Shown one piece after another: positions 575 to 58,200 of a stretch of 64,000 nucleotides of DNA. The position numbers and the translations under genes were made by a program. The DNA is from Amoebophrya sp. A120 (lineage: Eukaryota; Protista; Dinoflagellata): assembly GCA_905178155.1 (NCBI GenBank), contig CAJINV010000004.1, forward strand, positions 7,272,548-7,336,547. The letters run 5' to 3'. Numbering within the stretch: position 1 is the stretch's first letter; each line of letters opens with the position of its first letter. The notes beneath the pieces are model-generated. The model worked only from the letters and a program-made list of their open reading frames with translations. It searched no databases and was not told the DNA's origin.

Positions 575-3500
575 TCACTCAAAGTCGAAGTGTGTACGAC
601 ACCCGGCGAAGTTTCCAAAGCCGTCGACGTCCACGGGACTTGTGTTGTCAAAGTACATTTTATCCAGGGAAAAACACTTATCCCCACCCATTTTTTGCAT
701 GACAAATAGCGGAATCTATGCACGTTCTGCATGACAAATTGGATGGGGATGCTTCTTTTCTTGTGGATACATTTGCAACAACCGGTCCACTTTGCGGTCC
801 ACCTCGTTCGGCCCCTTCCGGGAGGCGAACCGGTCCGCGAGGTTGCGCAGGACCTGCTCAATCCCGGCCTCCTCGGCGAGCAGCACGTAGGCGTTGTTCA
901 TCAATTGTTCGTGCTGGGAGTGGGAGGTCGGTTCAAAGTCGAAAATCATGGCGTTGTTCGGGTCTACTTGATTGTTCGACGCTTCGTCGTGGCCGCTCGG
1001 TGTAGTAGTAGTAGTAGTTCCACCTTTGCCGTTTCCAAAACCGGGGATGGCCGCAGCGGCGGCGTCAATTGTTCCGGCGGTAATTATTCCGGAAGCTGTT
1101 GATGTGGCACCAGAGCAACTACTACCCGAAGAAGAAGAAGATGCGGCGGTGATATGTTCTACTTGGTTAAAAATTATGTTGCTGCTCATTGCAATATCCA
1201 CCGCTCCTGCACACCCCGACGTATTCGTGGTGCCCGCGGCCAACATCGAAGATGACGCAGCTCCGGGGGCACCAGGTTGAAGATGTTGCTCTACTTGATG
1301 TTCATCCACTTCGTTGGCCGAGAACACTAGGCAGTTGCTGCTTCTCGTCGTGCGCTATGAACTGCAAAAGCATCGTACTCGTATAAATGCATTATAAACT
1401 TCCTTAGCTAGCATGAGAAATAAAATTTGTAATGCGGATTTACATTAAGAAAAAGATTTGTAATGCATTATTGCAATACAACGAGTACGATACTTTTGCA
1501 CAGGATATGCCCCATTGCCGGTTGATTTCCTCGAGATGCAGCTGTCAACTATGAACTGCAGAAGTATCGCAATCGTATAAATGCATTACAAATTTCCTCA
1601 GCGTGAGAAATGAAATTTGTAATGCGGATTTACCTTGGCAGAGGGAGTTGTAATGCATGATTGCAATACGAGTACGATACTTTTGCACAGGATATCGACT
1701 CGCCGCCGACATCTTTTTTACCGCGAACATGTTCGGCGAGCACGCCGGCGTCAGGGAGGACTGCGACGGCGGCGATATGAACTGCAAAAGTATTGTATCG
1801 TACTCGTATAAATGCATTACAAATTTCCCCAGCATGCGAGATAAAATTTGTAATGCGGATTTGCCTTAACAAGATGGAGATTTGTAATGCATGATTGCAA
1901 TACGAGTACGATACTTTTGCACAGGATAGGCGAGCTCGCGTGGCCAAAGGAGGGGACCGTCGGGATGGTCGGGTTCACAAACTGCATCACGGCCGAGTTC
2001 TCCGCAATTTCCTCTTCCGCAAGTCTCTGCCCGAGGTCGAAAATCAGCATCAAGTCGTCGAGGAGGAGGCAGTTCAACTCGATGTCGTCAATCTGCCCGC
2101 CGAACTCGAACCAGTCGCGGACGACGGTGAAAAAGTTCTTCTGCCTCACGAAATAATCCAGATGAAAACTCCGGTTGTGTGCGTTGGACAGAGTCGTTGG
2201 GGGCGGCAAAATGTCTTGCTGGTGCTGACTGCGGGAAAACGTTTGGTCCCGCTCCCTCTGCGGGGTCTCGGCGGTCGCAGACAACATGGTTTTTACCGCG
2301 TTGCCGTACACCCGAACGCACTCTTTGACGATGGAATTCGATCGGCGGCTGGAAATCTCCTCGTATACTAAATCGAAAAAATCTTGGCTCGCGCCCCTGC
2401 GATTTTCGAATTATGTTGGAAAAATCTGCAAAGCCAAACGACGGTAGTCGTACATCAGGAATGTTGACACTATCATTCATTCGCTCATGCCGACAAAAAA
2501 GAATGAAAAGAATGAAGCAAGGCGAGGAAATAATTCTGGGTCGCATTATACACCGTAGCAGAATCCGAACGGAAGTAATAAAGCTAAAGCTTTCGGCAAA
2601 AAAATACAGAAAAATACTTTTCATTCACAATGGGGTGGCAGAGGTGAAAGCACTGGTCCGCCGTCCCGGCCGCTATTATGGCCACCATCCTCGCGATTTC
2701 CCGTTTTTTCGAGCCCTTTATCCCGATAAAGGCCTCTGCCAGCGCGGACGTCAGCCCCGCGGATTTCAAACACAAGTCCAAGAACTCCCCGCCGCCGTGC
2801 TCTATTAAACGCAAAGATGTCTGGGAGTCTGGAAGATTGTAGTAAATTTGTGATGCTCTCTCTGGATTTTAAACAAGATTTGTATTGCATGACCAGCAAG
2901 AGGACTCCAGACTGTGCTACGCGGAGAGGGTCTTTCCTATACGGTAGAGGTATCTTCACAAAGCCCTCTAAAAGTCTGTGATGCTCGGGCATGCATTACA
3001 GACATCATGGGTCATGCAAAATTCGATGACAAACCTGGCAAAAATCCTCCAGACCCAGATCGATATTTGCAATCCATATGCGCCAGCATGGAACCAAGGC
3101 AGACCGCAACGGACGCGCGTAAATATCCTGAGTAAAAGCGTCCCTATATTACCAGAGTCAAGATGGAAAAGCTGCTAGACAAATCAGCCAACTTTGGTTG
3201 TTGCGCATGACAAGTTTGTCCTCGTAGTGTAACCTTCTTTAGCTAGTACTTAGAGCAGCAGCATCACAGATCTAGCATATCATGCTATTTTTTATAGCAT
3301 CACAAATCCCAAAACACGACTAGAAAAAGCTTCTCATGTGGCTTCGCGTGAGAAACTTTTTTGGCATGCAGATTTGCATGACAACTCTGGGGTGGGGACG
3401 TTTTTACATAGGATAGCAAATCCACCTGGTTCGAATGGGTTTTCGACTGCTGGTAGGTCCTCACCGAAACCCGCGTTTGTTGCACGTTCAACATCTTTGT

Positions 3501-6500
3501 CCCGTTCAACATCTTGTTCGTCCCGTTCGTGTTTATAATTTTCTGGTTCATTTCTTTTTGCAGCAACTGTGACTGCTGCATTTGGGAATCCACACCGACG
3601 CCTAATCTCAGCCCGTTTCCTCCCGGTACGAACACAGGATGCCCCCCCTGAAGATGATCCCCACCGGCAGCACGGAAGTCGTAGGACGTCAGAGAGGGCC
3701 ATGAAATGCAAATATGTCTGGACGTCTGGAAACTTGTGATGCTGGGTGGCGTATTATGACGAGGCCACAAGTGCTGGCTCAGCATGACAAGTTTCTGAGC
3801 TTGTTCTAGGTGTTGCCTACTTATTCTGCATGACACGCTGCGTTTCTCCATGTTGACAGAAAAATGCGGCCGCTCTTGGGTAATGTGCACGACAAATTAA
3901 AATTTAAAAGTCATGTGAGGCAAGCATGACAAACTTGCACTCTTCCAGACCCAGACACTTTTGCACTTGATAAAGGCGGCGAGCGGACGATTTCGAAGGT
4001 CTCGCCCGTCCCCGGATCGGTGGACTGGATCACCAGGGGCGTTTATGACAGTGCAAAACTCCCCCTCCCCTTCATGATTTGTATAGCATGAACGGCAATA
4101 GTACAAGCATCAGCAAGAAAAAGAATGCCGGTTTTGCATGACAAATTTACACTGGAGCGTACTAGTGCTGTTTGGGCTACCAGGACTTGTCATGCAGACA
4201 GTGCCAAGAGCCACAAAATGGTTATGGGATTTTGCATGAAAAATGCGGGATGAAAGGAGGAGAAGGGGTTGTGCACTGTCGTAGTGTTGGCGGGTTCAGC
4301 TTCGCCCGCAAGGAGCTCTTCGTCGGCGGGGTCTGGAGCTGCGGGGGTTCCTTGCTGTGGTTCGAGTTGGAAATGGACGATGTCGACATCGCTTCCTTCG
4401 ACACGTTGGTGTGCAGGTCTTGGTGCAGTGGGATGGACATCACACAGAAAAAAACAAGGACAAGGTCATATTTGTAATGCAAAAATAAATAGATACACAA
4501 AAAGAATATACAAATTTTTCTAGAAAAATTTGTCATGGGCGGCCCCATAGCATGCTTTTTAGGATCTGTGTGTGTTCATTTCTGCATATACAAATATGCC
4601 CTGCTAGGTTTTTCTCTGTGGGATAATGGAACAGCTGCTGTCAAAATTGTCCTCCTCAAACACTTCCGCGACGAGCTGCTCCTGCGTGGCTATGCATTGC
4701 AAAAGTATCGTACCAGTAGCGGTTTTTGCAATACAAATTTTCATCCCTCCAAAGTGAGGACTGAAATTTGTAATGCTGATTCAGCGAAAGAAAGATTATT
4801 TGTAATGCAGAAATGCGAATAATTTTTCCATATAATTTCAATTACAGCAATCACGATTGTACTTCTACTTTTGCAATTCATAATGGCTTGATCCACCGAC
4901 TTCTCGTTTTGCGAGTTATCGTCCATCGGGCTGGCGTTCATGACTTGGATGTTGTTCGCCCGTAGCTTCCGTTTGAGATTCCGGTCGTGCTGCTCCTTAC
5001 CGATCGCTTGAATCAAGCCGCCGAACAAATTCCGTGGACTTGGCTGCGGAATGAACGGCTGGCTACTAGTAGCACCGCTGCCGGCGCAGGAACCACTTTG
5101 TTGGTCCATGTTGTGGTTACTCGCCACCGACATGCGGTGGTCGAGTTGCGAGCAGAGGCTGTTGTCCTCGCTGTTGGGCCCATTGTTCAGCATCCCCTTC
5201 ATGGGGTTCGGATTGCTGTTTCCCAGCGAGCTGTTGCTCATGTTCCCGATCGGAGAGGAGGAAAAGTGAAACCGCCCGAGAGAGGACCCAAATGACCGGT
5301 GCTGGCGGTAGCGGTTCCTGACCGGGGAAATCGGGCTGGGACTGGTGTCGAGCTTGAAAAAATTATTGTCCCTATGTTTGTCGGGCGGGGGCGGATCTTG
5401 CGAAGGGTGCGCCAACTCCTGCGTGATGCGGGGTCGGTTCAATAGTGTAGTGGTCCCAGCAGCGCCGTTAGAGGGTGGAGCTACGATGTTGCCATGCAGC
5501 TGGTTCGCCCACGAAGCCCCCGACGCCTGTGTCGCGTTTTGGTGCTGCTGCAAGTTGGTGGAAATGAGCTGATTATTAGCAGCTACCACAGTACTAGCTC
5601 CACCGCCCAACGCCGCTCCTCCGCCAGCATCCCCTCCTGCTCTCTGCGCCTGCTCTAGCTGTTCCTTCGAGCTCTGCTCGGCGAAAAAGTGCGTTTTCCA
5701 CTGCTCGCGCTTCTCTTCATTCACCCTTTCCACACCGCCAATTCTGATCAAATGCAAAAGTGTCTGGGTCCTCTGGGAGATTCTGAGACTTATCACGCAC
5801 GTTTTGCATGAGCCATGATGTCTGTGATGCATGCCGTAGCATCACAGATTTTTCGAGGGGTTCTCGATGCCTATTTCGCATGACAAATGCCCTATAGCAA
5901 AAATTACATTTTTCCCTTTGCTACTTATGCAATACAATTTTTTTTGGAATCCAGATGCAGCATCACAAGTCGCACTCTTCCAGAGCCAGACATTTTTGCA
6001 TTTGATAATTCTCGGATGGTAGCGATCCCCGAAACGAAGAAAGTTGCAGAGGATCTTCAACAGCTGCGCAGAGTTATTGTTACTCGCCGTCGCTGTTTTA
6101 TATCAAACGCAAATATGTCTGGGTCGGGAAATCTGTAATGCTGAATGGTCATGAGTGAAACCGCCTTTAAGTGCAATACTGCATGATAAATTTTTAAAAC
6201 GCTTTTACATGCTCAGTGCGCATTACAAACTGCGCTTTTTCATGGCGAAATAGTGGCGCTTTTGTTGCTTTTATGCAATACAGATTTTTCTGGAGTCCTG
6301 GACAAGCAATACAAGTTGAAGTTTACGACCCTTTCCAGACCCAGGTGGCATATTTGCGTTTGATACTGTACAACCTGGGTTCATCAGTAACCCGCCGGAT
6401 GAAGTTGTACTACTACTAGGTACAACCGCGACGAGCGGTGTAGACACGGGGTTTCCATCGAGATTCGTCTGTGCGTTCACATTATCTCCAGCACAGGAGG

Positions 6501-9500
6501 CCGCGGCGTGCCGCAGCAGCTGAAACCGCTCTTCGCGGTCGTTTGGATCGGCAGAAGAAGTGCAGCCCTTGATCAGGTGATGCAAGCCGGAAACGGCGTC
6601 CAGCGTGACCCGCAGATCCACGTGGTGGGCAATGGCCTCCGCAAAAATGGAGAACAGAGGGGAAACCTACGTAGAGGTTTTGTTAGATTGCAAGGACGAG
6701 ATAAAGATATATTTATTCGACGAAATAACTGCTCGTCCCGCAGCACAGCAACTAGGACGAGGTCGACTGGAGCTACTTCTACTTCTGAACACGTATCGTA
6801 AATTGACACGAAAATAAATTACGAAAAAAAAAATCGATCTTGAGTGATACATCTCCCAATCTCGGTGCTGGTCGGCCCCGGCAGAGCAACTGCAGCACCC
6901 AGAACAACACGCGCAGCACCTTTAGTCGCCCCGTCGCCGTCCACGTTGGCGGGTGCTGCTGCAGAATCGCGTGCAACATCGGGACCGTTTGGAGGTGAAG
7001 TAGCTTGTCCCGCCATCGGACGTCCGGGTCCGCGACGAGATTTCCCATGGTCCATATCAGTTGTTCGCACAGGCAGAGACTTATGCTGTGCAAACGTATC
7101 GTACTCGTACTAATTGCTTTTATGCATTACAAATCTTTTTCTTAAGGCAAATCCGCATTACAGATTTGATTTGTAATGCTGAGCTACTTTGTATTGCAAT
7201 TTCTACAAGTACGATATTTTTGCAGTTCGTAACACTCAACGCCGAACGACTGTGCATCACGGAAACCAGGATCTGGGGTAATGGTTCGAAGTTGCTGTCC
7301 CTCGTGAAGTCCACGTGCAGATCGAATATTACAGTGAAAAGTGCCCCCACCCCCAAAGTTACAAAAATTTGTGATGCGAAGTTTCCAAATGAAAACTTTT
7401 TGTCATGCATGAAAGGAGTATGAATCTTTCTTGTTTCTGATGCAGATTCTAGCGGTGTTTCGCATCGCTTGCATGACAAGCACCGCTCTTGCTGGGATCT
7501 TTTGCAATACAAATTTTTGCCATTCACGATCGGAAATCTGTGATGCTGATACATGCAAGAGGGCGAATGTTTCATTTGGAAAGGTTTGCAATACAAATGC
7601 TTTAAAGTTCGGGGGTGGGGGCATTTTTCATTGTAATATCGAACGGAATTTGTTCACGACCATGATCCTGCTGGACAACTTGCTGTTGAAGATGTTGTAT
7701 GCTGTACGAAAGTATCGTACTTACTCGTATAAATGCAGGTCTTGCATTACAAATTTTTTTGTCAAGGCAAATCTGCATTACAAATCTCATTTCTCACGCT
7801 CAGGAAATTTGTCATGCGATATATACTAGTATGTACGATACTTTTGCAGTTCATATGTTGATCTGCAGCGGAGCAACTCGTCGTGCTGGAGGTAGATAGC
7901 GTGTTGGGGAGCAACGGCATGTTACCACAGAGAAAATTATTGTGAAGACCGCTCCCGATTGTACTACTGCCAACAACGTTCAGATTCGTCTTGGACAGAA
8001 TCCCGGAAACCAGATTGCAGCACACCCAACACGCCTCGAATTGCGCTTTCACGTCTAAGGATCGTGCGAGCGTGCGGAGTAGGATGTCGATCAGTTGCTG
8101 CTTCAACTGCTGATTCCGGGCGTGCTGCTCGTGGCTAGTAGTGGTTGCTGTGGTCGTGGAGGAGGAACTGGAACTGCTAGTACCATAATTTCCGTTTGAT
8201 GAATTTTTGATCATGTTGTTCGCAGTCGAACTACTTGTGCTGGAGGTACTCAAGCCCGAAACACCGACGATTGGACCTCCCCCGTGGTTATGCTCTGCAA
8301 AAGTATCGTACTTTCTCGTAGTAATTCTTGCAATCCTGAAATATTCTTCTTAAGGTAAATCCGCTTTAAAAATTTTATTTCTCATGCTGGGGCAATCAAA
8401 ATTTGTAATGCATTTATACGAGTACGATAGTTTTGCACAGCATAGTGGTTCTTCCCTTGGAGGTCGTTAGAACAAGCACTGCTCGAATATGGCGCTCTCA
8501 AATGTTACATTCTCAACTGTTACATGATTTGTCACGCAAAACTACCATAAGCAGCCACACGATCAAGTGGCTGCGCATGACAAATTGCTATTCCCTAAGG
8601 GCTAAACAGCATGGAATAAATCTGTGCCAAATTTGTGATGCTAGAGTTGCGAGATCCTCCCTTTCATTTTCATCTCTGCTCTTGCACCACAAATTCATCA
8701 TGTAACAGTTGAGCATGTAACGACGTTTGAGAACCCCATATCGAAGAAGAGGAAGAAGATGCAGTCGTGGTAGACGAGTAGGTGGCGAGGCGTTTCCTCA
8801 ATTCGCACAGCAAGTGCAGGAACTGGGCGTACTTGCGCCATCGGTCGAAATCGAGACTAGGATCTTCGGCAGTACCGGCTGCATGGGTCGAGCCGCCCGA
8901 ATTCGAGGCTGCTCCTGCTCCACTTGGTCCGCCAAAAAAACCACCACCGCCAACATCTCCGTCGTCAGTCATGTATGGCGCTCTCAAACGTTGCATTCTC
9001 AACTGTTACAAATGAATTTGTGATGCTAAACCGACATGAATTTGTGATGCAAGAATGGCAAACGTGAAAGGGGAGACCTAGCGCGTCTCGCATGACAGAT
9101 TTGGCGCAGACTCTCAGCCTGTTTGGCTCTTCGAAAATTTGTCATGCGAAGCAGCTTGATCATGTAGATACTGATGGCAATTTTGCATGGCAAATAATGT
9201 AACAGTTGAGAATGTAACGTTTGAGAGTCCGATATCATGTCCAGTTCGCGTCGTAAGTTCATCGTCCCCATGCCTGTCGCCCCACCGCCCGCTTCCATCC
9301 CGTCCTCATCATCCAACAAAATGTTACACCCACTTTCGGCCGCCGAAAGCCCGCAGAACGACGGCTCCGCTAGCTGCGTCACGTGGTCCGCTATGTCGGT
9401 GATCTCGCTCAGTTTCAAATACGACGCTTGATGTCTGGTGGTAGAGGAGGAGGAGCTCGTGGCAGTCGTCCCGACCAGTGGCGGGGGCGTGCAGATGCTC

Positions 9501-10610
9501 TGCATCAGGTAGGTGTCCGCTGGGATGCAAGACTCCTGAAACTCTGCATCGAACGTAGACGCCTATGCTTTGCAAAAGCATCGTAAAAGTACAAATTGCA
9601 TAAAGAAATCGCTCACGACACGCTGAACTAAAAATGCTGGGCCAAATTGAAAAAGTAGGTGGCACTTCTTGTCATGAAGCAATTGCATCTTCATCCATAT
9701 CGTACTACGATACTTTTACACAGCAGGATAAAACCAAGCCGGTCACGATGGTTGCGAGATTCAACTGTGCGGTTGGGGGTATGGCTGCGGCGGCGGTAGT
9801 ACTAGAAGAAGATGATGGAGCGGCTCCGGCGGTTCCAGAGCTACTACCAGAGCCGCCGCCGGAAGGAATTGATGTATTAGGGTTACCACGACCAGAAGAG
9901 GAGGAGGAAGAAGAAGAGCCTCCATAATTATTCTGCGGGTTGTTCGACGTCAGCCCTGCTTGATCGTGATGTAATTGAAATTGTTGTCCCGCAATCACGT
10001 TCGCAGCTAAATAGTGTCGGAACTTTTCCCTGACGTGAAACACCCTGTCCTCTCGCAACCTCGCCTTCCGCTCGCTGGTGCTCAAGTGAAACGAACTTCT
10101 CGCCCCGTGCCGCGGCGTGGAATCGAGTAACACGTTGTGGTTGCTGCCGCAATTCATCATCTCTTGGCTGTTCGGAAAAGAGCAGCTGTCCTGCGAACCG
10201 CAATCCGCGTTTTGCAACACTAGATCTCCCAATCTTATTCCCGTCGCAGAGCTGTGCGGGTTGGGGTTGCTGTTCAAGGACCTAGAAACGAACAAGGGGT
10301 TATTTGCACTTGTTGAAGAACTGGAGCAACCGAAGCACTCGTTGGGATTGTTGCTATTCGTAGTCATCATCATTCCGAAGTGCTCCACCGAGGGACCACA
10401 GGAGATGGACATCATTTTGGCTCGTTTCTCCGCCAGTAGCTGGGCCTTCTCCTGCTTGCGCAGCTGGAGTTGGGAGTCCGCGCGCCGCCACCGTTCGGTA
10501 TCGTTGTCGTACTGGCCCTGTTTGAACGCGTGGCGCCGGCGGTCGTTGGCTGCTCCTTGGGCCGTGGAGGAAGAGGAGGATCCGCCATGCTGTTCCTGAT
10601 CCACGAACAT
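575..10610 (-). CDS. Divergent importin-alpha (karyopherin alpha)-like protein; multi-exon, 19 introners plus probable canonical introns
   Basis: IBB-like RRRHAFKQG...RWRRADSQLQLRKQEKAQLLAEKR. ARM-like segments AQFEACWVCCNLVSG, EQLIWTMGNLVAD...RDKLL, LFWVLQLLCRGRPAP, TLDAVSGLHHL, KKREIARMVAIIAAGT. C-terminal AEEAGIEQVLRNL...EVDRKVDRLLQMYF. The order matches importin alpha. Start ATG uncertain. Confidence 0.75.
661..769. mobile_element. Introner family C
   Basis: TIR TATCCAGG..CCCA/GGATG..GGATA; flanks CATTT/CATTT. Confidence 0.85.
1356..1507. mobile_element. Introner family A
   Basis: TIR TATnnnnTGCAAAAGYATCGTACTCG; flanks TGCGC/TGCCC. Confidence 0.85.
1550..1694. mobile_element. Introner family A
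   Basis: Family A TIR; flanks TCAAC/TCGAC. Confidence 0.85.
1776..1928. mobile_element. Introner family A
   Basis: Family A TIR; flanks GGCGA/GGCGA. Confidence 0.9.
2803..3078. mobile_element. Introner family B
   Basis: TIR TATnnnnYGCAAAnATGTCTGGGTCTGGA; flanks TGCTC/TGCGC. Confidence 0.8.
3124..3415. mobile_element. Introner family F
   Basis: TIR TATCCT..TAAAA.CGTCCC; flanks GTAAA/GCAAA. Confidence 0.8.
3700..3972. mobile_element. Introner family B (B2 interior)
   Basis: Family B TIR starting CAT; flanks AGGGC/AAGGC. Confidence 0.85.
4044..4283. mobile_element. Introner family D
   Basis: TIR TATGACAGTGCA.AACTCCCC; flanks GCGTT/GTGTT. Confidence 0.85.
4438..4625. mobile_element. Introner family K (C-like)
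   Basis: IR CATCACACAGAAAA..CATATTTGTA / TACAAATATG..CTGTGGGATA; flanks ATGGA/ATGGA. Confidence 0.75.
4691..4882. mobile_element. Introner family A
   Basis: Family A TIR; flanks GTGGC/ATGGC. Confidence 0.8.
5746..6007. mobile_element. Introner family B
   Basis: Family B TIR starting GAT; flanks ATTCT/ATTCT. Confidence 0.85.
6101..6365. mobile_element. Introner family B
   Basis: TIR TATCAAACGCAAATATG at both ends; flanks eroded (TTTTA/CTGTA). Confidence 0.75.
7082..7231. mobile_element. Introner family A
   Basis: Family A TIR; flanks AGACT/ACACT. Confidence 0.8.
7327..7638. mobile_element. Introner family J
   Basis: TIR TATTACARTGAAAARTGCCCCCACCCCC; flanks TCGAA/TCGAA. Confidence 0.85.
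7698..7855. mobile_element. Introner family A
   Basis: Family A TIR; flanks TGTTG/TGTTG. Confidence 0.85.
8289..8444. mobile_element. Introner family A
   Basis: Family A TIR; flanks GTGGT/GTGGT. Confidence 0.85.
8488..8740. mobile_element. Introner family E
   Basis: TIR TATGG..CTCAAA.GTTACAT.CTCAACTGTTACATG; flanks TCGAA/TCGAA. Confidence 0.9.
8974..9234. mobile_element. Introner family E (opposite orientation to 8488)
   Basis: Family E TIR; flanks TCATG/TCATG. Confidence 0.9.
9564..9730. mobile_element. Introner family A (diverged)
   Basis: Family A TIR; flanks ACGCC/AAACC. Confidence 0.7.
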
Positions 10611-11654
10611 CTTGATCTTGAACTCTCGATTTTTGTTCGGCGACGTTCCTATAACCTCCGAGGATGCTTCAAACAAATTCTTGATCTTGAGCAGGCCAAA
10701 ATCAAACGTGTGCTGGTTGTCCTCACGTATTAATATGTCGATTTACTCATACTCTTCGTACCCACATCGCAAAGAGGCTTGCTGTTGCTCCCTCCGGTTC
10801 TACAACTCTAGTAATCTTTCAACTACAGTTGTTTGACTTCAGTACTTCTAGAGCAAACTACTTACAATCCTGCTCCGGCTACGAAACTATCTCGGTATAA
10901 TTCTCCTGCAGGAGCACCTTCGAAGAAGATTAGGAGCCCGATGTAGAGGACACTAACAGAAGCAGAAGATGTTGAAACAGAGGACAACTATACTATACTT
11001 CTTCCCAGATCGATTTCTAAATCTGCCGACCGAATGAACAAAAACTCCAGCACCCCCTCGACAAACCGGACACCCGCTCGTCCATGGTGACTTCATTTCG
11101 CAAAACAAAAAAAACGAAGACGATTTTTTCTCTACCCGAACGCCACACGATGAATCAACACGACCTGCTGGAACTGAACAAGATAGTCGCTCTCGCTCAT
11201 GTCGCGAATCACCCTAGTAAGAACATGTGTGTAGTCGCACTCCTCGCAGTCCAACACATATGGACATGATTATGGTTTGGAATTCCGAGTTTTTAATTTT
11301 CGGCTCATTTTTTTTTCTTGATCTTGTATCCAAGCATCGGAGGTGGAGGTCTTTGAAAAAGTCTCTAGAAGTTGCGTGTTAAAGTCAAGCCGTGCGGCAA
11401 CGATTTACAGTGTGGCTCAACATCTACTTCTATGCGCGATGAAAAGTAGAACAGCTTGAGGGCCGCCATGAGATTTGTCTATAGTGGTTATTCGTCCCAT
11501 GTTGTACTTAATCGAACAAACCCCCAACATCCCGTTCATCTTCAAACTGAAACGTGGACTTGCGAAACAGGAGCATGTCTGTCCCACCAAATAAGCAGTT
11601 TAGGCGAAGATGTTGTTGAGCATGTAGTAGTGGTCCACGACCACTTCTACCCTT

Positions 11655-33900: not shown

Positions 33901-34623
33901 GTTGAAGCTCGCGCCGGCGAGGGCTTCGATGAGCCGGGATTTCCCGGCGGACTGGCCCCCGCAGATGACAAATTGGGTGATATCCTGAGCAAAAACATCC
34001 CTGTCATGCAGATTTGCAAGAACAGCAGGAGCATTTGTAGTGCGCATCCGCATGAGAGGCATTTTCAATCCTGTTTTGGAACTTGTAATGCTGTAAACAG
34101 GATAAGAAATTGAATTTGCTATGTGACTCTCCTTGCTAGACCGCGCTACACTCCAGCCTGCAACTTGTCATGCGTGACTCCCAAAACTTTCAAGTTTGTG
34201 TTGCAAAATCACCATCTTGACTCTGGGGCGGGGCCGTTTTTGCTCAGGATAGGTGAGCGGCATCTGCTCCCCGGAAAAACCCTCGACTTGGCTTAGTTTC
34301 AGCTTGATGTCGGAGATGAGATTCAGCAGCCTCCGTCGGTTGTTGTCCTTCGCATCCTTTGCGCTAGAAGTTGTAGTTCCCGCAAGAACTCCACCTCCGG
34401 GCCCGCGGCTGCTGGAGGCTCTGGCGGTAGGGCCGGGTTGCACGCCGCTGTGGTTGAGATTTTTTGATGTACCAGCGGAAGTGGCGGTGCCGGTGGAGGG
34501 AGTGGTGGATGTTGCGGGAAAATCATCATCGTGCTTCTCCTTCCCGGGTGAGACCTCAACCTGCGCGTCGAGTGACTCGCGAGCGGGCGGAGCGAACTTT
34601 TTGGGAACTTGTTTGGAGGACAT
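30944..34623 (-). CDS. Dynamin-related GTPase, DRP5/ARC5/DrpC-like
   Basis: G1 GGQSAGKS followed by RLIEALAGASFNFVCGTLGSRRP, G3 DLPG, G4 TKLD, and middle-domain GGAQFMRLLYEIE. Removing introner 33981-34251 joins EQMPLT/QFVICGGQS. 3' end approximate. Confidence 0.8.
32142..32464. mobile_element. Introner family H
   Basis: Family H TIR; flanks TCGGT/TCGGT. Confidence 0.9.
33981..34251. mobile_element. Introner family F
   Basis: TIR TATCCTGAGCAAAAAC; flanks GGTGA/GGTGA. Confidence 0.9.
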
Positions 34624-47202: not shown

Positions 47203-47908
47203 TTTCTTTCGACACAGAAGTAGTAAAAACGTAAAAATGTTGAGGGATCCAACATTTGTTCACAATACACCGAGTTGTGGAGAATCTGTACCATGTAGTA
47301 GTTTGTTCTCGGAGAAGCAGTGAGTGGATTTTGGTGGAAAGAAGTGACGCTTCATTTAGCGACGTGTTCAAAAGTGCTGGTGGGCACTAATTGCGATAAG
47401 ACCGAGGGAGGCAATTCGCGACGCTGGAGCGGTGTCACACACAGGGGGAACACAGTGGTGGACTAAACTTCGAAAGTGGTGGTAAAAACTCAAGGCTCAT
47501 GGTGCGCACCATAGATCATGGCTCGAGAGCTTCATCCTTCTGAAAATAACTGCGTGACCGCGCATTCTTGAGACGAAGCTTAGTTGATGATGTGCGCTCG
47601 TTTTACCTTTTGACGCTTTGTTGCATGGAGGCAGAGCCTTATTTTCTGTGTCTCCACCATGCACCAGGCGAAATCCACATCTACACTTGAAAAAATCATG
47701 CAAGGGATGCTAAAATGGAAATGCGTTTTTCTTTTTGTTTATCTTGGTTTTGTTTGAGTTCGTTTGTTGTTGTTTCGTCTACTTGCAAAGAGATAGTACT
47801 GGAAGATCATGACAACTTCGCCTAATAGGTAGGCGTATGGAAAATGTAACTCCACCTCGCAGACGCAGACGAGCAGTGACCTCCCTGTGGCCCTACGCAC
47901 AACACCTA

Positions 47909-50170
47909 CTACAGCTTCATCACAACGCAGGTAATGTCGTCGTGAAAGCCGTCGTCCAGCTGCGCATTCCATCGCTTTTTCGCCTCTTCGTTAATCGCAC
48001 TGGCACCGGAGTGGAGCAACGGCCTGAGCTCTTCCACTTCCTCAAAGACGTCCCAAACCCCGTCGGTGGCGACACAGAGAATGTCGCCGCGCTTAGCGTC
48101 GAGGAGGCGGACCTGGGGTTATTTTCAAGATTTTTGCAAGAATGCACGCACTAGCGGCGAAGGCATGCTAGAGAGTTTCTTTTTGTTGTCGGTCTGTCAG
48201 ACACACAAGTAAGTAGTTGTCCTCATGCTGCTGCTACATTCAACAAACAAAACCTCCCAATTGTAGTAAATACATCCGGCATGCAGGTCACACCCTGTTC
48301 GTGCGCGTGCAAGTCGCCAAACACTCGGCTCATGTTCAGCGCTGGCCAGGTTTGCCCGGCTGTGACAATCCGCGGGTCCCAGGGTCTCACCGTGCCCTTG
48401 GAAACGTAGAAACTCTGAATTTCCGCCGTGCCTGCTTCCTCGATCCTGGCCTTCTCTTCCGGCGTGTCTGGCCGATGGTCCTTCGTCAACGCAGTGTGTG
48501 TGCCGTTGGCCTGTATAATTCATGTTTTTCTTTTTTTCATGCGCATAATTATTGATGCGTTCCTGAGCTTGTCATCATGCTGTACTGCGATACCAAAGGA
48601 AAAAAATCCTACCCGGAAGAGCACCGCCTTGCCGTCCCCTATGTGTCCAATCAGAATCCACGGATCGACGGGGCCGTCGCCTTTCAGGATCATCGTTGCG
48701 GTCGTGCCGGACTCCCTTGCATCAAGCTCCGCCGGGAAAACGCCCTCGCCGTCGACGTACTCTTGCAGCGTCTTCACAGTGAGGCACTCCAGGGTCTGAT
48801 AGAACACATTTTTGTCTATCTTCGTCACTCATGCGCTGCTGCGTTCTATCTTGATCTTGTATCAGAAGAAAACGAAAAGTTATTCAAGTATCATTCTGCA
48901 TGATGCAGCAGGAAGTAGCCTGCAGCTTCTCTTTTCAATTGTCACTTTCACTCTATTGCATGAAGATGGAACCTCCACAACAACCATGATATTACCTCGT
49001 GCATCTGTTCAAAGGTGGCTTCCATGCATCCGCCCAGCCCCCGCAGCTCTTTGATGTTGTTGTCCAAATAGCCCGGGCCTTTCGGGTGAATATCGGCGCT
49101 GATCTTCCCCAAATTTTCGACCAACAACTTCACCATCAGGTTGGTCACCACTTGGCTTGTCACCTCCCCGAATTTCCCGTGGCCGTCGTAGACGCCGCAG
49201 ATTTTCAAATCTCCCCACTGCTTTGTCGGGTAGTGGAGGAATGACCAGGCGTCGTGGTTCGGCGTGCCCTCTTTGTGGCCTTTCCTGCACGAGATGCTGC
49301 AGTTTCCCTTTTCCTTTAGCAGCTGTTGGATGGAACTCAGGCTTATGCTGTTCCCACTCGCTTATGCATTGCAAATATGTAGTCTGAGTCTGGAAGTAGA
49401 TCGCCAGGTTTGGCATGCATATTTTGCATGGCACAGGATGCCTGTAATGCACGACCTAGCATCACAGATTTGTAGAGGGCTTCCTGATGCCTATTCCGCA
49501 TGAGAAGTGCCCCCTCCGCGTAGCAAGAACTGGACTCCTGTTGCTGGTCATGCAATACAAAGCTTTTCAGAATCCAAACACAGCATCACAAGTTGCTTTG
49601 TTCCAGACCCAGACATATTTGCATTTGATATCGCTTCCGTCGCCAGTTTTCTCGACTCCTCCGGGATGAAACTATCCTGTTTGGACGTCGAGCTGGTGAC
49701 TTGGAAGTGCTATCCTGTGCAAAAGTATCGCACTCGTAGTTGTAATTGCAGTCATGCATTACAAATCATTTCCTTAAGGTAAATCCGCATTACAAATTTG
49801 ATTTCCCATGCTAAGAAAATTTGTAAATGCATTTTTACGAGTACGATGCTTGTTTTGCAATTCATAAGTACTCTTTTTCGGCGAAACTGGGTTTCTTGCC
49901 GAGCTCCGAGTCGATGTTGCTGCGCACCCACCACATGGGCTCGACTGGTGGTCGTGCTGGGGGTTTTTTACTACTTACTGCGGGTGGAGGAGCCCCAGCA
50001 GGTTGTGAAGATTTTGGCTTCGACGGTTGCGACGCCGATTTCGTCTCAAATTCTGGGACGACGCTCAGTGCGCGGGTGGACGCTGCGGAGAAAGGTGCAA
50101 GTTGCTCTGGTGCACCAGCTAGGGAGCCGTCCGCCCGCATGGGAGGTAAGGCAGCTCGGGCACGCGACAT
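47909..50170 (-). CDS. Protein phosphatase 2C (PPM family)
   Basis: PNHDAW, CGVYDGHGKFG, ESGTTAT, GHIGDG, MTKDHRPD, LNMSRVFGDL, LCVATDGVWD, HDDITCVV. Stop at 47909. Confidence 0.9.
49363..49630. mobile_element. Introner family B
   Basis: Family B TIR; flanks TCGCT/TCGCT. Confidence 0.9.
49711..49866. mobile_element. Introner family A
   Basis: Family A TIR; flanks AGTGC/AGTAC. Confidence 0.85.
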
Positions 50171-50283: not shown

Positions 50284-51779
50284 TCACGAGATCGACGTTT
50301 CGAAAATGTAGTAGTAGTCATTCCTAACAGGCGCGGAATCGAGAAACGTCACAGTATGATCTCCCACGCCACCAAACACTTTTTGAGTACTTACCTCCAC
50401 TGCACCTAAAGCCGACCACAGCGTGGACCCGGCCCAGGAAACCACGCTCGCAAACCCCTCTTCCTGGTCCGTAGAGTAGGATCTCGGCGCTGATCGGGCG
50501 GTGTTGCCGACGACTAGGTGGTCTGTTTCCCTTAGAAATTTGTCGATGTCCGGGCTCAGTGGAACAGAACCTGTTCCGTGATCCGCGGATATCGAGTGTT
50601 TTGATGTTGAGTTTTGTTCCTCCAACAGCGGTTTTGGTTTTATTTCTGGTGCCGCACTGCTGGAGCTGCTGCTGCCACCAAAGTAGGATTCGAACCCGAG
50701 CAAACCCGACACCGTGCTCAGATCATTGACCATCTTCGTTGGCGGGCCGTCCTGCGTGTTCACGATCGTGGTCGCGGGAACGTCAGGCGTCGATAGAGGT
50801 AGTTCAAACGCCGGGGAGGTGCTTGCGTTCCTGTCGAACAGGTCTGGCTGCGGCCAGAGGTCGGTCAACTCCGCTTGCATCAGCCGCTCGTAGTTCGCGA
50901 GAGTCTGTTGAGGACTTTGCAAAATAATGTTTTTCGTGCACTATCAACATACAATAATCTTCACAACAACTACGTCACACATCATCGATGCAGCATCTAG
51001 TTTGTATTGCAAGGTTCAATTCGAAGTCAAATCTATAGCTATACCTCCTTCCACTCATCTAGCCCTCCAGCCGGTTTCTTCCACAGTCCCTGGGACGCGT
51101 CGACCGGCGGCGGCGCGGAAAAATCGTAGGTGTACTTCCCATAGTCTATGAAAGTGCACAACTCCCCCTCCCCCTCACTTGTATTGCATGAACAGCATGA
51201 CAAGCGCCAGCAAGAATACCGGTTTTGCATGACAAATTCGGACAGGAGTGTTGCGCTATTTGGGCTGCCAGAACTTGTCATGCAAACAGTGCCTAGCGCC
51301 AAGGCGTCAATCAGGTATTTTGCATGACAAATGAGGGGGAGGAGGAGTTGTGCATTTTCATATAGTCCACATTCATGCTAGAACTCGTCGCGCTTGACGG
51401 CGGCCCGGTCGGGTCTTGCTCCTTCTCAAGAAGATTTGATGTCGCGCCGGCGAAGCCTCCTCCTCCACCATCCACTTTCGCGCCAAATTCCAACTTTGCC
51501 GCCGCGTACGTGTTGTTGCTCTGCACAAATTGCGGACCCGGGTCTGGCGGCGCTGAGTAGAATTGAAACGGCTGCGCCGTGAAACTGGCGGAAAGCTTCG
51601 GCATGCCGGGAACACCGAGGGAGGGACGGTTTATCTGGCCGGTAGTTGTCGCACCTCCTGCTCCGCCACTGGTAGTGCTGGGAAAAAGCACAGACATCTT
51701 TCTCCGTGCGTCGTGGCCGCGGCGGGATCGGCACTAGTACGTGCCGTGTCGCTATCTTAGCCCTCTTGTTTTCATCCAC
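50284..51779 (-). CDS. Hypothetical protein (one introner; boundaries uncertain)
   Basis: ORFs 51311-51697 and 50284-50922 with an introner at 51147-51362 between them. No family recognised. Confidence 0.35.
51147..51362. mobile_element. Introner family D
   Basis: TIR TATGAAARTGCACAACTCC.CCTCCCCCTCA; flanks TAGTC/TAGTC. Confidence 0.9.
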
Positions 51780-52348: not shown

Positions 52349-55300
52349 TCATCGATCTACTGCGATCTCCTGCCACCGTTCCTCTTCATGTTGGCCTTGA
52401 GTTGTACTGATCATTCCAACAAGCTGCTCATGCAGAGGTCTCACCACCTTCTCCTCAAAAACCCTTCCGAGGTCGTAACATTTTCGTTCGATTGCGAAAG
52501 AAAGTTCCTCCAGTTGCGCTGCGCTTAATTTCGCTTTGCTGTACTCGGCGAAGACGCACAGATCCAGCAAAGGCAGGTCTTTGAAGCTGCCGATGTGGTT
52601 TGCGAGGATGAGATTCTGCAGAGTCGACGTTTCCATTGGACTAGAGGCTGGTGGTGGTCGCGTAGAAGTAGTTCTAGTTGTGCCAGTAGTAGTTCCTGCG
52701 GCAGGCTGCTCGACATCGCTCAACATCATCGACAGGAGGTTCAGAAGCTTCAGTGCCTGCGCCGACGTGAAATTGTGCAGGTTTTCCGCAATCAGGGGCA
52801 GGAGCGAGTGTAGTCTTGAACAAGGTTGTACCAAAAACTCTTGTTCCGCGTGATGGTTTTCTCCCGGGGTCCCACAAGTTCGCTCCACCGCACTCACCCC
52901 CTTCAATATGCACAGAATCACTTCAGCAATCTCCGTGTTGTCGGGCTGTACAAGTAAACTTGCTTGAGCAGGAGCTAGATCTCCCGGCGAAACCGCGACC
53001 ACCGGCGAGTCACTTCTCGCTTGATTCATCTTCGTGGCAGCAAACGCGGTGACTTCCTCTTCCTCTAAAGTGGTCGTGGTTGCTTGTTTTCTGCCACCGC
53101 GGTTCTTCTCGACATTCCTCATTCTCTCCGCTCGCATCTCCAGCAATTCCCGCTCTAGTTTTTCCGTTGCCAAATCCACAACGCGCGTCGCGAAAGCGAG
53201 CGCGCCGGTCGTGGTCTCCACTCGACGTCCGGAAGATGCAGGAACAGCTTGTTCTTCCGGTTGTAAAAGTTCTGTTGGAAAAATGTTCGCTAAGGAAAGC
53301 ACTGCCAGGTCGGTGAGGGACAAATCGTCTACCTTTGTCAAAAGCTCCTTCTCGATCGACTCCACTACACTGTCGACGCCGGGTCCGGAAAGAAACGTGG
53401 GAACCGCGATCGGGCCGAAAGAAATATTACCCGCGCCCGTGGTGTTGTCTGCAGCATCAGAAGATGACTGTTCGTGGTTGAGCAAACCAGACTCCTGCGC
53501 CTTCAGCAGCCGTCTTGGTTCCGGCCCAGAAGAGAGTTTGCGAAGTTCGGAGCGGATCGCCGTGCTACTGTAGGACGGAGCAGAAAGAGACGCGCTTGTT
53601 CCACCGACGTGAGCAGGAGGTCGCGATAATTTTTGACCAGCATAATAATCACCTTCTCTCGCCGCAAACGCGGTCCGCAGTAATGCCAGCTCCGACGCGT
53701 TCAATTGTGACAGCCGTTTCAGCAATGTGTTTGCGTACATTTCAAAGTCAGAAAAGCGGAAGATGCAGTGTGCCAACCTGGCCAAATCCATAGGTTTACA
53801 CTGCCGGGTCCGCGCGACCAGCTTGTGGCTAAGCTCGACGGCGAGATGAGGCAAGTTGGTTGTTGTACTAGTAGTGCTGGTCAATTGGAGTTGCGAAGAT
53901 GTTGTTCCACCGCCAGGACCTGCGCCGCAAGTGACTGCTCCTGCTGCTGCGCTCCTTTGCAAAAAAAACGCGCATTCCGTCGCGGCCGCCATGCTCATCC
54001 TCGGCAAAACTTTCGGATCCAGAAGTGCCTCTTTCAATTTCGCCGAGCACGTTTCAATCGCTTTTTGTAACAAGCGGTCGAAGGTATTGATATTACCGTT
54101 TGAATATGATGCTCCATTGGTTGATGCGCTCCTGCTCTCCAATTGCGCCAGCGCGCGGCACAGCGGGCGGAATTCGTCTGCCTTCAAAGAATCCATCTTC
54201 GTTTCGAAGGTTTGCAGCAGGACCAGCATCAGCTCCCGACAAGCGGAATCTGTTATAGTTTGGAGTTCGAATTTGCAATCTTATTTGGCCGTTGTCCTCA
54301 ATTGAGGAGCTGCTTCTGCTTTTTTGACTCAGGTCGACAGAAGACGGATCCTCGAGCAGAAGATTCCAGAAGCACATGTCAGGGCGATGAAGGATGAATT
54401 GGTAGAAGGTTCATCACTGCTTTGGTCAGAAGCAGAACTGAACTTTAGGTTGTCATCATGGAGGGTGCTCAGGATCTCACAACTTTTGTGATCTTCGCAG
54501 TGGTCATGCAAGAACTGTAATTCAGCAAGTCCTACCTGGCTGCGGCGTTACTTCTCAGGGCGATGAAGGATGAATGGTTTAAAGGTTCGTCATCTGCATC
54601 GGAAGCAGAACTGAACTTTAGGTTGTCATCATAGAAGATGCGTGGTCGAGAAGATGGACATCAAAAGGATACAACACCACACAAGCAAGGTAGAGGAAAT
54701 TGTGTGCCACTAAAATTGACACGACACCGAGACGAAGCGGATGTCGAGACACCCAGCAGCTTTTTTATTGTAGGACAACTTTTGACTCGCGGCACCCATG
54801 GAATAAAGTAATTCAAGTGCCGGAGCTTCGAAGTGTCCGTGTGAACGTGAAATAATTTGCAGCTGTGAAGTAATTCGCAGCTCTTTCTGAAACATCTGAT
54901 CACTTCCTGTTGATCCGACACAGACGGAATGTCGCCACGACACCCAGATCATCGGAGGGGTGGAGAGGCGGCAAAATGCGATGAAACCAAAACAAGCTTG
55001 AAAATGGTCATGCTGCAGGTCAACGCTAATCAACATCAAGCTGAATGAACAATTTACCGTCTCCTTCCGAAAAATCCGCAGCGAACTCGCCCAACTGGAA
55101 TCTCCTTTCCTCGTCGAGCGCCACCACCACCTCCAGTAGTACCGCCTGCTTATGCAGTGCAAAAGGATTTTTGGACTAGCAGATATAGCATCACAAATTC
55201 GATCAGTATGAAAAGTGAAATTTGTAATGCGGGATTACCCTTGAGAAATAGATTTGTGATGCATGAATGCCGTAAACATAAATTAGTACTACGAGGAATC

Positions 55301-56480
55301 CGGTACTTTTGCACTGCATACTGCTCCTCCACGGCCAACGCTGCCCCGAGATCCCGGCTGGCCAGCTTATGCATTGCAAATCTGTCTGGGTCTGGAAACT
55401 TGTGATGCTGGGCGGCGTATCGTGAGGAGGCCACAAGTGCTGGAGCAACATGACAAGTCTCTGAGCTTCTAGGTGTTGCCTATTCTGCATGACAAACTGC
55501 GTCTCTGCATGACAGAAGAGTGGGGCTCTTGGGTAACGTCCATGACAGATTTAAGGGTCATGCCAGAGAAGCATGACAAACATGCATTCTTCCAGACCCA
55601 GACATATTTGCACTTGATACAGCTGGTCGCAACACAACTCGCACACTTCCAAATGATTCAGCTGGTACAGCAACGCGCACAGCTTCGACAAGTCGTCTGG
55701 GGGGGTATCATCCCTCACGTGCAGCAATTCCGCAACGTGGGACACGAGTTTCTTCTCGAACTTCTCGTACCGGAACCGCGGGGAAGAAGTTAATGCTTCG
55801 AAAACGACGTTGGTCTGTTTGATGTTTAAATACTGCAGCCTCCTTTGTATCCTCCCGACAAACGTGCAGAAAAATTGCGTATCGAAAAAGTCCGCTCTTG
55901 CGAAGGCCCGGAAAATGTAGCAAAGGTCCGGCTCGACAGTTTTCAAAGAGAGTTGTTGTGCCCGCCAAGAGAACTGTTCCCACATGTGCTGGTGTTTGAT
56001 CCCGATGACGTTTTCAGTTACACATTTGTCTAGAATCACGGCGAGTGTCACTGCGTCCATCTGCTCCGTGTAGAGACTACCGCCACGCAAGTCGTATTTC
56101 GTGACATCTGGGAAACCCATGAATGTGGCTGGGGCTATCCTCCGCTCCCGCCACCACTCCTTTTCCCGGTGCTCCCGATGCATGGCGAACCGGTCCATCA
56201 AAGGTCGAGGTTGGCGAATCCGGTGGTTCTGCAGAGACCAGGATTTGCGGCCGACTGGGACGTAGAAACGGACTTGCTGCACGTGGTAATATGGCGCTTT
56301 GTTGAAGAAGCCGCTGACATGTTGAGATGTCGTCGAGCCGCTTGGGCATGAAGAACTGCTCAACGGACAATAATGAGAGCGGGTACTAGTGGTCGCTGAC
56401 CTCCGCATGGCAAACGCAGAAGAGCTTGATGACGGCGCGTGGCTCGTCACACAAAGACGAAATCCGGGATCCAACGTCAT
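52349..56480 (-). CDS. Putative mitochondrion-targeted helical-repeat (HPR/RAP-like) protein; snoRNA host
   Basis: R/S-rich presequence-like N-terminus ending QQVRF. Helical repeats such as DLCYIFRAFARADFFDTQFFCTFVGRIQRRL and CKPMDLARLAHCIFRF. Long exon 52349-54229. Confidence 0.45.
54371..54469 (-). ncRNA. Box C/D snoRNA copy 1 (dual LSU rRNA guide, snR61/SNORD38-like)
   Basis: Sense: C ATGATGA, guide CAGTTCTGCTT, D' CTGA, C' GTGATGA, guide TTCATCCTTCATCGCC, D CTGA. Flanking AGCAC/GTGCT stem. Confidence 0.8.
54551..54637 (-). ncRNA. Box C/D snoRNA copy 2 (paralog)
   Basis: CTTCT-ATGATGA...CAGTTCTGCTT-CCGA...ATGACGA...TTCATCCTTCATCGCC-CTGAGAAG. Terminal stem CTTCT/AGAAG; guides identical to copy 1. 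Confidence 0.8.
55151..55320. mobile_element. Introner family A (variant)
   Basis: TIR TATGCAGTGCAAAAG; flanks CTGCT/CTGCT. Confidence 0.85.
55368..55619. mobile_element. Introner family B (B2 interior)
   Basis: Family B TIR; flanks CAGCT/CAGCT. Confidence 0.9.
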
Positions 56481-57275: not shown

Positions 57276-58200
57276 TTAGAAGAAGAATCCGACGATCTTT
57301 CCACCGGTGTGCTTGCGACGGGCCTCCTCGTGGGTGAGCATGCCGTAGGTGGTGGTGAGCACCAAGTGGCCGAACTGACGAGACGGAAGGATGTCGGAAG
57401 CCAGCTGTTCGATCTGGGAAAGAGTGACGTCGAAACGCGGGGAGATCACGCCGCACTTGTTCAACCGACCGTTGAGGTTGATCACGATCTTGCCCGCACG
57501 GTGGTCATCGACAATCTCGAAGTCACCGATGTACTCGTGCTTCTGCATGCACTGCAGAAACTTGACGATCACCTGTAGGGAGTAGTGGAATTTAAAAATG
57601 TACGCGTTTATGTATTGCAAGGTAGGAAATGAACTACGAGTTCAATGTCACAACAACTCATTCTCTTGTTTCTCTCAGCGACCGATGGCAGCATGTTGGC
57701 GCAGTCGGGATCGTGGTTCCTATCTCACAGATCTAAAGATGGCAGACCGCATGCGAATCTCTGCTTTAAAACTTAATCTCCTTCTTCAACTTGTCATGCA
57801 AGGAAACAGTTACAAATGGAATTTGTGATGCGAAAAACGACTATACCTTGGAGGACGGCTTGATCAGGACCTGGCGCTTTCCCCGCTTTTCGGCGTTCAC
57901 GATGCTGTTCAAGCAATCGTTCAAGACGGATACCTATGGATTGTAAAAGTGTCTGGGTCTGGAAGATTGGAACTTGTCATGCTAGCTTTCCATACCTAGA
58001 AAATCTGTATTGCATAACCAACAAAAGTCGTAGCCTTCTTTGTCGTGCAAAAGCGCAGTTTCTCATGCGGATTGCCTATGAGAAAGCGTTTTGGAAAGTT
58101 GTCATGCCGGACTGCATTCGGAAGCGTTTTTATTATGCACATTTTAGCATCACAAGTTTCCAGACCCAGACATTTTTACTATCCATAAAACCTTCACCAT
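57276..58200 (-). CDS. RPS15A: 40S ribosomal protein S15a (uS8); 3 exons
   Basis: [81 protein letters not shown]...GGKIVGFFF. Confidence 0.97.
57935..58187. mobile_element. Introner family B (B3 interior), RPS15A intron 1
   Basis: TIR TATGGATWGTAAAARTGTCTGGGTCTGGAA; flanks ATACC/AAACC. Confidence 0.9.

Follow-up and report, generated by a model that had tools for sequence, protein, structure and literature searches.

A probable fixed splice register for TAT...ATA elements in coding exons of Amoebophrya sp. A120

In a 64,000-nucleotide (nt) stretch of the Amoebophrya sp. A120 genome (contig CAJINV010000004.1, positions 7,272,548 to 7,336,547; hereafter the window), coding exons are interrupted by short elements that begin with TAT, end with ATA and carry terminal inverted repeats (TIR) between 5-bp direct repeats, and we found that these elements, each together with 5 nt of the duplication, are absent from spliced contigs that are likely RNA. 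Imperfect direct repeats fix the position of the cut, a point missed in the original prediction, which had been made from the letters of this stretch, and they define what is very probably a fixed intron register, N+TAT...ATA+NNNN. As that prediction had said, such elements have been reported in Amoebophrya (Farhat et al. 2021, PMC7789003); the phenomenon is already known, and the splice rule is new and testable. With a probability of roughly 0.6, we propose that the spliceosome removes them by reading U at intron position +2, branching at an A at position -7 and setting the 3' cut by distance.

Elements in the window

A scan for TAT...ATA ends, an inverted repeat and a 5-bp flanking direct repeat gave 74 candidate rows, from which 55 non-overlapping elements were picked by hand, and blast with those 55 added six eroded copies. 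The resulting 61 elements, each 108-323 bp and together 12,858 bp (20% of the window, 41% GC), agree in number and size with those originally predicted (Table 1). TAT...ATA elements with 5-bp duplications are real features of the coding DNA of the window, which a strict rule matches 50 times, against a mean of 0.43 (maximum 4) in 30 second-order Markov controls. The ends are exact in 54 of 61, close to the near-universality claimed for them, and the inverted repeat is of the A120 type (TAT in 58-60 of 60 elements, A-run at +12..+15). Direct repeats are perfect in 37 elements, have one mismatch in 20 and are eroded in four (2, 2, 3 and 4 mismatches), which reproduces the earlier tally exactly and holds with element 22043 re-placed to start at 22041. 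Blast clusters of 22, 7, 6, 5, 5, 4, 4 and 3 copies plus five singletons, with 67-87% identity within clusters, come near to the families first named (the 24 of family A are the 22 plus two A-like singletons, and the 13 of family B are 7 + 6).

The elements lie in both orientations relative to transcription (11:11 in cluster A), and no target consensus was found at the window sites or at 233 copies in a second assembly, again as predicted. At a length of element+5, GT/GC-AG ends are possible in any register in only 5 of 61, which bears out the statement that many copies cannot give GT-AG introns; the elements lack the GT/GC...AG ends of U2-type introns, with GT-AG in 1 of 60 window elements. 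An Rfam search of the window gave no match.

The host genes all lie on the minus strand, and once the elements are excised, 60 of 61 junctions fall in minus-strand open reading frames (ORFs) of at least 100 aa, which make up 79% of the excised window, and the remaining junction (57935) comes after a short first coding exon. Removal of element+5 (+2 and +8 being the same frame) yields ORFs of 1224, 1029, 823 and 714 aa, whereas other, out-of-frame offsets yield at most 643 aa. Pfam gave strong matches to carbamoyl-phosphate synthetase II (CPSII) and dynamin and a match to an importin-beta-binding domain (E 1e-7), whereas for RPS15A the match is weak (Ribosomal_S8, E 0.052, on a 29-aa exon). The further claim that all copies are in coding sequence and none is intergenic is correct for the window and fails in the second assembly, where some copies lie in non-coding DNA and one is nested in another element.

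Removal from spliced contigs and retention in DNA

Contigs or reads from sequencing runs X1, X3, X4 and X9 were compared with the window over 401-10900 and 38001-58000. X3 and X4 are one sample, whose RNA status is a guess backed by the loss of GT-AG introns, no run containing the stretch being recorded as RNA. One X3 contig of 6211 nt (depth 46.8), with zero mismatches in the listed pieces, spans the 401-10900 region and resolves 15 of the 21 joints there. Two of these are at GT-AG introns, and the other 13, at elements, each skip element+5. Subtraction of 19 elements (+5) and two introns from 401-10680 predicts 5776 nt, identical to the contig coordinate, and all 19 elements of the 1866-codon gene are absent from this one contig, which reads as a single ORF. 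Element+5 is skipped at 15 of 15 resolved joints, and GT-AG ends are possible at none of them.

Within CPSII, the X3 and X4 contigs skip 163 nt at element 40587-40744, whereas an X1 DNA unitig (39647-41514, 43x, no gaps) runs unbroken through this one element that was checked; its joined form was not seen among the joints listed for X1 DNA, contigs being prone to drop rare forms, so that low-level DNA excision or retention would escape notice. The predicted precise removal from RNA therefore fits the spliced contigs, and the suggestion that it might take place in DNA is disfavoured. In X1, 69-145 different flanks depart at one terminal base in each of three elements, and the element ends are thus sharp genome-wide. 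RNA reads of X9 fall on short pieces in 5 of 30 bins only; X9 therefore seems to be from a different strain. Raw X9 RNA reads pile up on element pieces 46038-46072 (~490 reads) and 57942-57984 (~130 reads), and at each piece they share a single loose end. A related copy that stays in an abundant transcript, or that is stable once excised, may account for this.

A single register from imperfect repeats

A sense copy reads d1 (5 nt) + TAT...ATA + d2 (5 nt), and where d1 and d2 differ, the spliced product shows which base is kept. With k as the intron start relative to the first T of the element, k = -1 fits 22 of 22 junctions (15 resolved and seven one-sided, the latter assuming element+5), k = 0 fits 20 and k = -2 fits 17. 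Since only k = -1 fits them all, the intron is most simply N+TAT...ATA+NNNN, and from the junctions at hand this register may well hold for every copy. The 13 informative junctions all share -1, for which P is 1.2e-4 if registers are random and uniform (7e-4 when corrected for six registers). Removal stays exact in copies with two repeat mismatches and hence does not depend on repeat identity, and at element 9564 the contig ignores a same-length GT-AG at k = -4. In register -1, the first T becomes intron position +2, the position of T in canonical GT.

Invariant bases in independent copies

A 23-letter pattern from cluster B ends matched one public assembly, JACKZZ01, at 150 or more loci (765 kb with overlaps), and a 28-letter pattern had no match in viral contigs. 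Among the matches listed, to which all JACKZZ01 results here refer, no locus is orthologous to the window. They contain 315 distinct full-length copies, defined by homology alone, and the direct repeat is perfect at 5 bp in 241 of these, at 4 bp in two and at 6 bp in none, in keeping with the predicted non-autonomous TIR transposon with a 5-bp stagger. Strand was called by a codon model that was right in 55 of 58 window calls (~95%) at the threshold used; 239 JACKZZ01 copies were called, and the 233 with at most two repeat mismatches were combined with 60 window copies (22041 left out) into a set of 293.

Two positions in this set are invariant on the sense strand. T at +2 is found in 293/293, against 13 changes at its mirror, A at -5 (to G in 10 copies and to C in 3; p 2.4e-4), while A at -7 is found in 293/293 and its mirror, T at +4, has changed six times (p 0.03). 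A-to-G changes thus occurred 10 times at -5 and never at -7. A strand mutation bias cannot explain both asymmetries, because they run in opposite directions. A at +3 is kept in 292/293 and T at +4 in 287/293, and no further asymmetry was found at p < 0.01 in the first 45 positions. The copy left out, 22041, has lost -6 and -5 and kept A at -7.

The second assembly also contains two other abundant families (~205-215 bp and 311-329 bp, with TATC..A-run ends) of which the window has few or no copies (loci L002, L014, L018, L025, L027, L043, L064 and others). At L018:775-1571 and L025:707-1291, inserts of ~800 and ~585 bp lie within elements whose introns would be 1104 and 834 nt long; the L018 insert is GC-rich and repetitive. 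A 7.5-kb region occurs twice at 90% identity (L022 and L030), as a paralogue or second haplotype.

How the elements may leave RNA

We propose that the first T of the element takes the place of U in GU and is read by the spliceosome as U at +2, that A at -7 is the putative branch adenosine, and that the 3' cut would be set by distance from it and not by AG. The long inner stem of the inverted repeat (~+9 to -12) would bring the two ends into proximity, standing in for recognition by U1/U2AF. Because TAT is read inward from both termini, an element would function as an intron whichever way round it lies and whatever the target, a property that we propose as the reason for the dense invasion of exons. 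Spliceosomal chemistry is the likely part of this scheme, and branching at the invariant A at -7, a candidate site, stands at about even odds.

Native GT-AG introns here start with GTATT, GTATC, GTATA, GTACT and GTAAG; given the first three of these donors, TAT copies the native +2..+4. The U6 ACAGAGA box is well matched by U at +4 (PMC13326754). In the folds (z -7.1 and -5.9), an internal loop separates the long inner stem from a weak 3-bp terminal TAT/ATA helix, an arrangement that would keep both ends near each other yet accessible. Fixed short branch-to-AG distances are described in Yarrowia, Candida, Trichomonas and Giardia (PMC2483917), and by our own arithmetic they place the branch A at -6 to -8. 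As reported for A120, U2, U4, U5, U6 and nearly all spliceosomal proteins are present and U1 was not detected (PMC7789003); one Amoebophrya relative with canonical introns has U1. A more far-reaching version, which we hold tentatively and rate somewhat below even odds, is that a U1-less spliceosome needs neither GT nor AG, that the transposon ends, N/UAU...AUA NNNN, are the whole splicing code with the -7 branch measuring the 3' cut, that one integrase-like transposase can therefore place a perfect intron anywhere in an exon and in both orientations, and that all families share one protein-binding motif repeated at three helical turns.

Several observations weigh against this proposal. The choice of -1 over 0 is made by two joints (4691, 6101) and that over -2 by five; a mixture of neighbouring registers would also fit, since contigs drop rare forms, and the joints come from the single sample taken to be RNA. 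A codon-usage test of the register was non-significant (40/66, p 0.11), and both stop-codon cases fit -1. Spliceosomes usually contact +1 G, -1 G and the branch. The first two contacts are absent here, because +1 and the last four bases are random (GT in 75/233 and AG in 16/233 JACKZZ01 copies). Moreover, +5 is C about as often as G, the sequence around -7 departs from the usual branch motif in lacking a U two bases upstream of the A, the -7 asymmetry alone has p 0.03 and is post hoc, and strand calls are only ~95% right. G-U and A-C pairs in the terminal stem number 31 and 32, with no excess, which leaves RNA-level selection on the stem unsupported. A drift to G at +1, suggested by 5/6 mismatches in the window, was dropped with 2/10 in JACKZZ01 copies, where no drift to AG at the 3' end was found. 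Pfam detected no transposase in the window ORFs or in 91 of 144 long ORFs of JACKZZ01 loci (~0.6 Mb), and Farhat et al. report finding none in A120 (PMC7789003).

The strong hairpins and the lack of GT, AG and a branch consensus would also suit removal without the spliceosome, guided by structure, in which a protein endonuclease would cut on both sides of the hairpin, 1 nt upstream and 4 nt downstream of it, with the exons then sealed by a ligase, or a circle would be released, as proposed for euglenid introns. A measuring nuclease would likewise give a fixed register, and the nonconventional introns of euglenids have paired ends and are believed to be released in circular form (PMC11170887, PMC11282704). 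However, the register coincides with the native GTAT 5' site, and +2 T and -7 A are fixed by identity and not by pairing, since their partners change, even to unpairable bases. The missing wobble-pair excess also speaks against a structure-guided route, as does element 11857, where a duplication ending in AGG makes an ordinary GT-AG intron in the same register. We consider this route unlikely.

Spliceosomal removal in a loose register whose variation is hidden by the direct repeat, the reading implied by the published annotation, appears improbable: the 13 of 13 informative junctions at -1 and the strand-specific invariance exactly at +2 are at odds with it. Farhat et al. describe splice sites that vary relative to the hairpin (PMC7789003), the dataset of Gozashti et al. 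(2025) has mixed gt/gc/ga/at/non-canonical ends within families (PMC12130899), and k = 0 does fit most junctions, but aligners place joints freely inside a perfect repeat. Far less probable still are reverse-transcriptase template switching across repeat-flanked hairpins, for which direct repeats plus a hairpin are a known setting (PMC8240250), and DNA excision, both of which draw on the guessed RNA status of X3/X4. Template switching is disfavoured because joints fall on the shorter side of broken repeats: with the repeat broken at position 4, the joint is on the 1-2 nt side and not the 3-4 nt side in 4/4 single-mismatch cases (3124, 3700, 4044, 7082), and the joints of 9564 and 6101 are likewise on the shorter side. 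An artefact would also have to clear 19 elements from one contig that has lost its GT-AG introns and reads as one ORF, and CPSII with 15 insertions could not otherwise be made; the X1 unitig unbroken through 40587 speaks against DNA excision.

Transposition and relation to known systems

Empty paralogous sites, of which L007 has four and L054 one, hold a single 5-mer without a footprint. L015:1641-1751 is a 111-bp TAT...ATA element whose family does not occur in the window. It sits inside a cluster D copy and is flanked by a perfect GAAAT duplication, and GAAAT is present once in 20 distinct alignments of the nest site to other family copies. The expectation of empty sites with one 5-mer was thus confirmed at sites that derive from paralogues and nested copies only. 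Three of nine candidate empty sites (L021, L026, L148) were rejected as tandem or gapped alignments.

When one mismatch is tolerated, the 9-bp motif GCA[TA][TGC]ACA[AG] has 288 matches in the 12.9 kb of element sequence; shuffled elements give 24, and the 51 kb outside the elements give 111. Same-direction motif pairs peak at 31-32 bp (417 pairs in 303 of 376 copies and 10 of 13 clusters, copies within a cluster not being independent), and this spacing, equal to three turns of the helix, points to a DNA-binding protein shared by most families. The common motif suggests one mobiliser, probably integrase-like; more weakly, it would be a DDE transposase related to Ginger or IS3EU/GingerRoot that acts in trans and binds the paired motif. 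Eight longer TIR copies are nested or have non-coding insertions, and none is a coding copy.

In the text of Farhat et al., A120 introners number 29,850 (17% of the genome), average ~240 nt, have TAT + 7 nt + AAA inverted repeats and direct repeats of 3-5 nt (given as 5 bp in the legend to Fig. S19), lie in co-oriented genes and have no transposase, and their mechanism is left open (PMC7789003). The window elements match the described features: TAT, ~7 looser nt and an A-run, a direct repeat (5 bp here), non-GT-AG removal and repeated families without an internal transposase. Unlike that account, in which the boundary is variable or unknown, no branch point is proposed, family-specific inverted-repeat motifs are not detected and general mobilisation by transposase is argued against (PMC7789003), they have one register for all junctions, invariant +2 T and -7 A, and a motif shared at 31-32 bp.

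The best candidate relative is A120 introner family 38 of Gozashti et al. (2025), a TIR family listed as Ginger with "TA/TA termini, 5-bp TSD" (target-site duplication); compared by description, it is ~810 bp long with ORFs similar to Copia/Gypsy integrase-like proteins, in contrast to the 108-323 bp non-coding elements here (PMC12130899). IS3EU/GingerRoot, of the integrase-like DDE class, share TA..TA termini but usually make 6-bp duplications, against 0 of 315 copies perfect at 6 bp (PMC10045372). TDD-4 and TDD-5 of Ginger2/TDD make 5-bp duplications, whereas the termini of Ginger1, Ginger2 and TDD are TGTNR and not TAT (PMC2836005). Introns of Fritillaria borealis derived from miniature inverted-repeat transposable elements are likewise non-GT-AG and are removed by a modified U2 spliceosome, but Fritillaria keeps U1, preferred end dinucleotides and a duplicated U2AF, while end dinucleotides here are essentially free save for +2 T (PMC13326754; PMC11282704). 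Euglenid nonconventional introns resemble the elements in their boundary repeats and in paired ends at fixed offsets from the junctions, and differ in their CAG/CTG stems and a removal thought to be spliceosome-independent, whereas the 5' end here copies the native GTAT site (PMC11170887). No published account of the fixed register, the +2 T/-7 A asymmetry or the shared spaced motif was found in open literature text (figures, subscription journals and bioRxiv supplements were outside the search).

Other features of the window

Element 20095-20247 (-), with the most eroded repeat, allows a second reading, a GT...AG intron of 155 nt that keeps the frame, and this might have freed the repeat from constraint. 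The GT-AG intron at 57573-57846 is highly expressed, ends canonically in TACAG and lacks an inverted repeat on its 3' side; judged by its sequence, it is likely an old element turned canonical and a possible 62nd copy. Element density differs between genes, with no element beyond 58187. Long element-free ORFs lie at 59192-60694 (-), with 501 aa and an RRM, and at 52352-54280 (-), with 643 aa and no Pfam match. The region 28950-30600 is GC-rich (60-68%), element-free and unlike the rest of the window, has no Rfam match and is possibly another repeat.

Table 1. Features of the window. Rows giving only a cluster or singleton are TIR elements; registers are values of k.
Feature	Position	Strand	Evidence and remarks
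Host gene with importin-beta-binding domain	578..10742	-	1866-codon ORF after removing 19 elements and 2 GT-AG introns
Cluster C, 109 bp	661..769	-	scan; joint 653-768, skip 114
Cluster A	1356..1507	-	scan; joint, registers -3..0
Cluster A	1550..1694	-	joint, registers -2..0; downstream repeat copy would give in-frame stop
Cluster A	1776..1928	-	perfect repeat; GT-AG impossible; folded
Canonical GT-AG intron (control)	2397..2617	-	absent from same spliced contig
Cluster B1	2803..3078	-	blast; joint, registers -3..0
Cluster E	3124..3415	-	scan; joint, registers -1,0
Cluster B2, sense 3' end ATG	3700..3972	-	joint, registers -1,0
Cluster F, sense 5' end TAC	4044..4283	-	joint, registers -1,0
Singleton, sense 3' end ATG	4438..4625	-	scan; spliced contig
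Cluster A	4691..4882	-	joint, registers -6..-1 (0 ruled out)
Cluster B1, sense 3' end ATC	5746..6007	-	scan; spliced contig
Cluster B2, two repeat mismatches	6101..6365	-	blast; joint, registers -2,-1 only
Canonical GT-AG intron, GTATC start (control)	6667..6850	-	absent from same spliced contig
Cluster A, sense 5' end TAC	7082..7231	-	joint, registers -1,0
Singleton, 312 bp	7327..7638	-	scan; removal shown by total spliced length
Cluster A	7698..7855	-	scan; spliced contig and spliced length
Cluster A	8289..8444	-	scan; spliced contig and spliced length
Cluster G	8488..8740	-	scan; removal by total spliced length
Cluster G	8974..9234	-	scan; spliced contig and spliced length
A-like singleton	9564..9730	-	blast; registers -1,0; same-length GT-AG at register -4 unused
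Cluster B1	11857..12118	-	only element with GT-AG at register -1
Cluster A	15503..15656	-	scan; ORF excision test
Cluster B1	16700..16964	-	scan; ORF excision test
Cluster A, sense 3' end ATG	17312..17447	-	scan
Cluster C	17496..17605	-	scan; ORF excision test
Cluster A	18007..18181	-	scan; ORF excision test
Cluster A	18299..18453	-	scan; ORF excision test
Cluster A, repeat eroded (4 mismatches)	20095..20247	-	blast
A-like singleton	21611..21802	-	scan; clustering
Cluster B2, sense 3' end decayed to ACT, -7 A kept	22041..22295	-	blast
Cluster C	22357..22480	-	scan
Cluster D	24326..24633	-	scan
Cluster B1	24690..24961	-	scan
Cluster A	25722..25875	-	scan
Cluster G	26050..26284	-	scan
Cluster D	26337..26642	-	scan
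Cluster A	27151..27317	-	scan
Cluster E	27369..27671	-	scan
Cluster C	28177..28297	-	scan
Cluster D, 323 bp	32142..32464	-	scan
Cluster E, at start of Dynamin_N domain	33981..34251	-	scan; Pfam
CPSII gene, 15 elements	37813..47259	-	Pfam CPSase domains; spliced contig ~5.76 kb
Singleton	38303..38453	-	scan
Cluster A	38504..38649	-	scan
Cluster A, repeat eroded (3 mismatches)	39258..39416	-	blast
Cluster C, 108 bp	39598..39705	-	scan
Cluster A	40587..40744	-	163 nt skipped in X3 and X4; retained in X1 DNA unitig; registers -4..+1
Cluster A	41487..41636	-	one-sided joint, registers -3..+1
Cluster F	41938..42191	-	scan
Cluster B1	42332..42600	-	scan
Cluster E	43704..43984	-	scan
Cluster D	44059..44372	-	one-sided joint, registers -4..0
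Cluster B2	44849..45109	-	scan; run contigs
Cluster A	45154..45303	-	scan
Cluster A	45461..45613	-	scan
Cluster F	45731..45953	-	scan
Cluster D, 323 bp	45995..46317	-	scan
Cluster B1	49363..49630	-	scan
Cluster A	49711..49866	-	scan
Cluster F	51147..51362	-	scan
Cluster A	55151..55320	-	scan
Cluster B2	55368..55619	-	scan; run contigs
274-nt GT-AG intron, start G/TATAG (same register)	57573..57846	-	three element motifs; short blast match to an element
Cluster B2, few codons into likely RPS15A gene	57935..58187	-	scan

Significance

How these elements exit RNA has been open since 2021, and the fixed register and two invariant bases make the question directly testable. If our proposal is true, the spliceosome can do without both +1 G and the terminal AG, which would explain how a transposon fills a fifth of gene space at little cost, and tens of thousands of intron boundaries in this genome could be re-annotated by rule.

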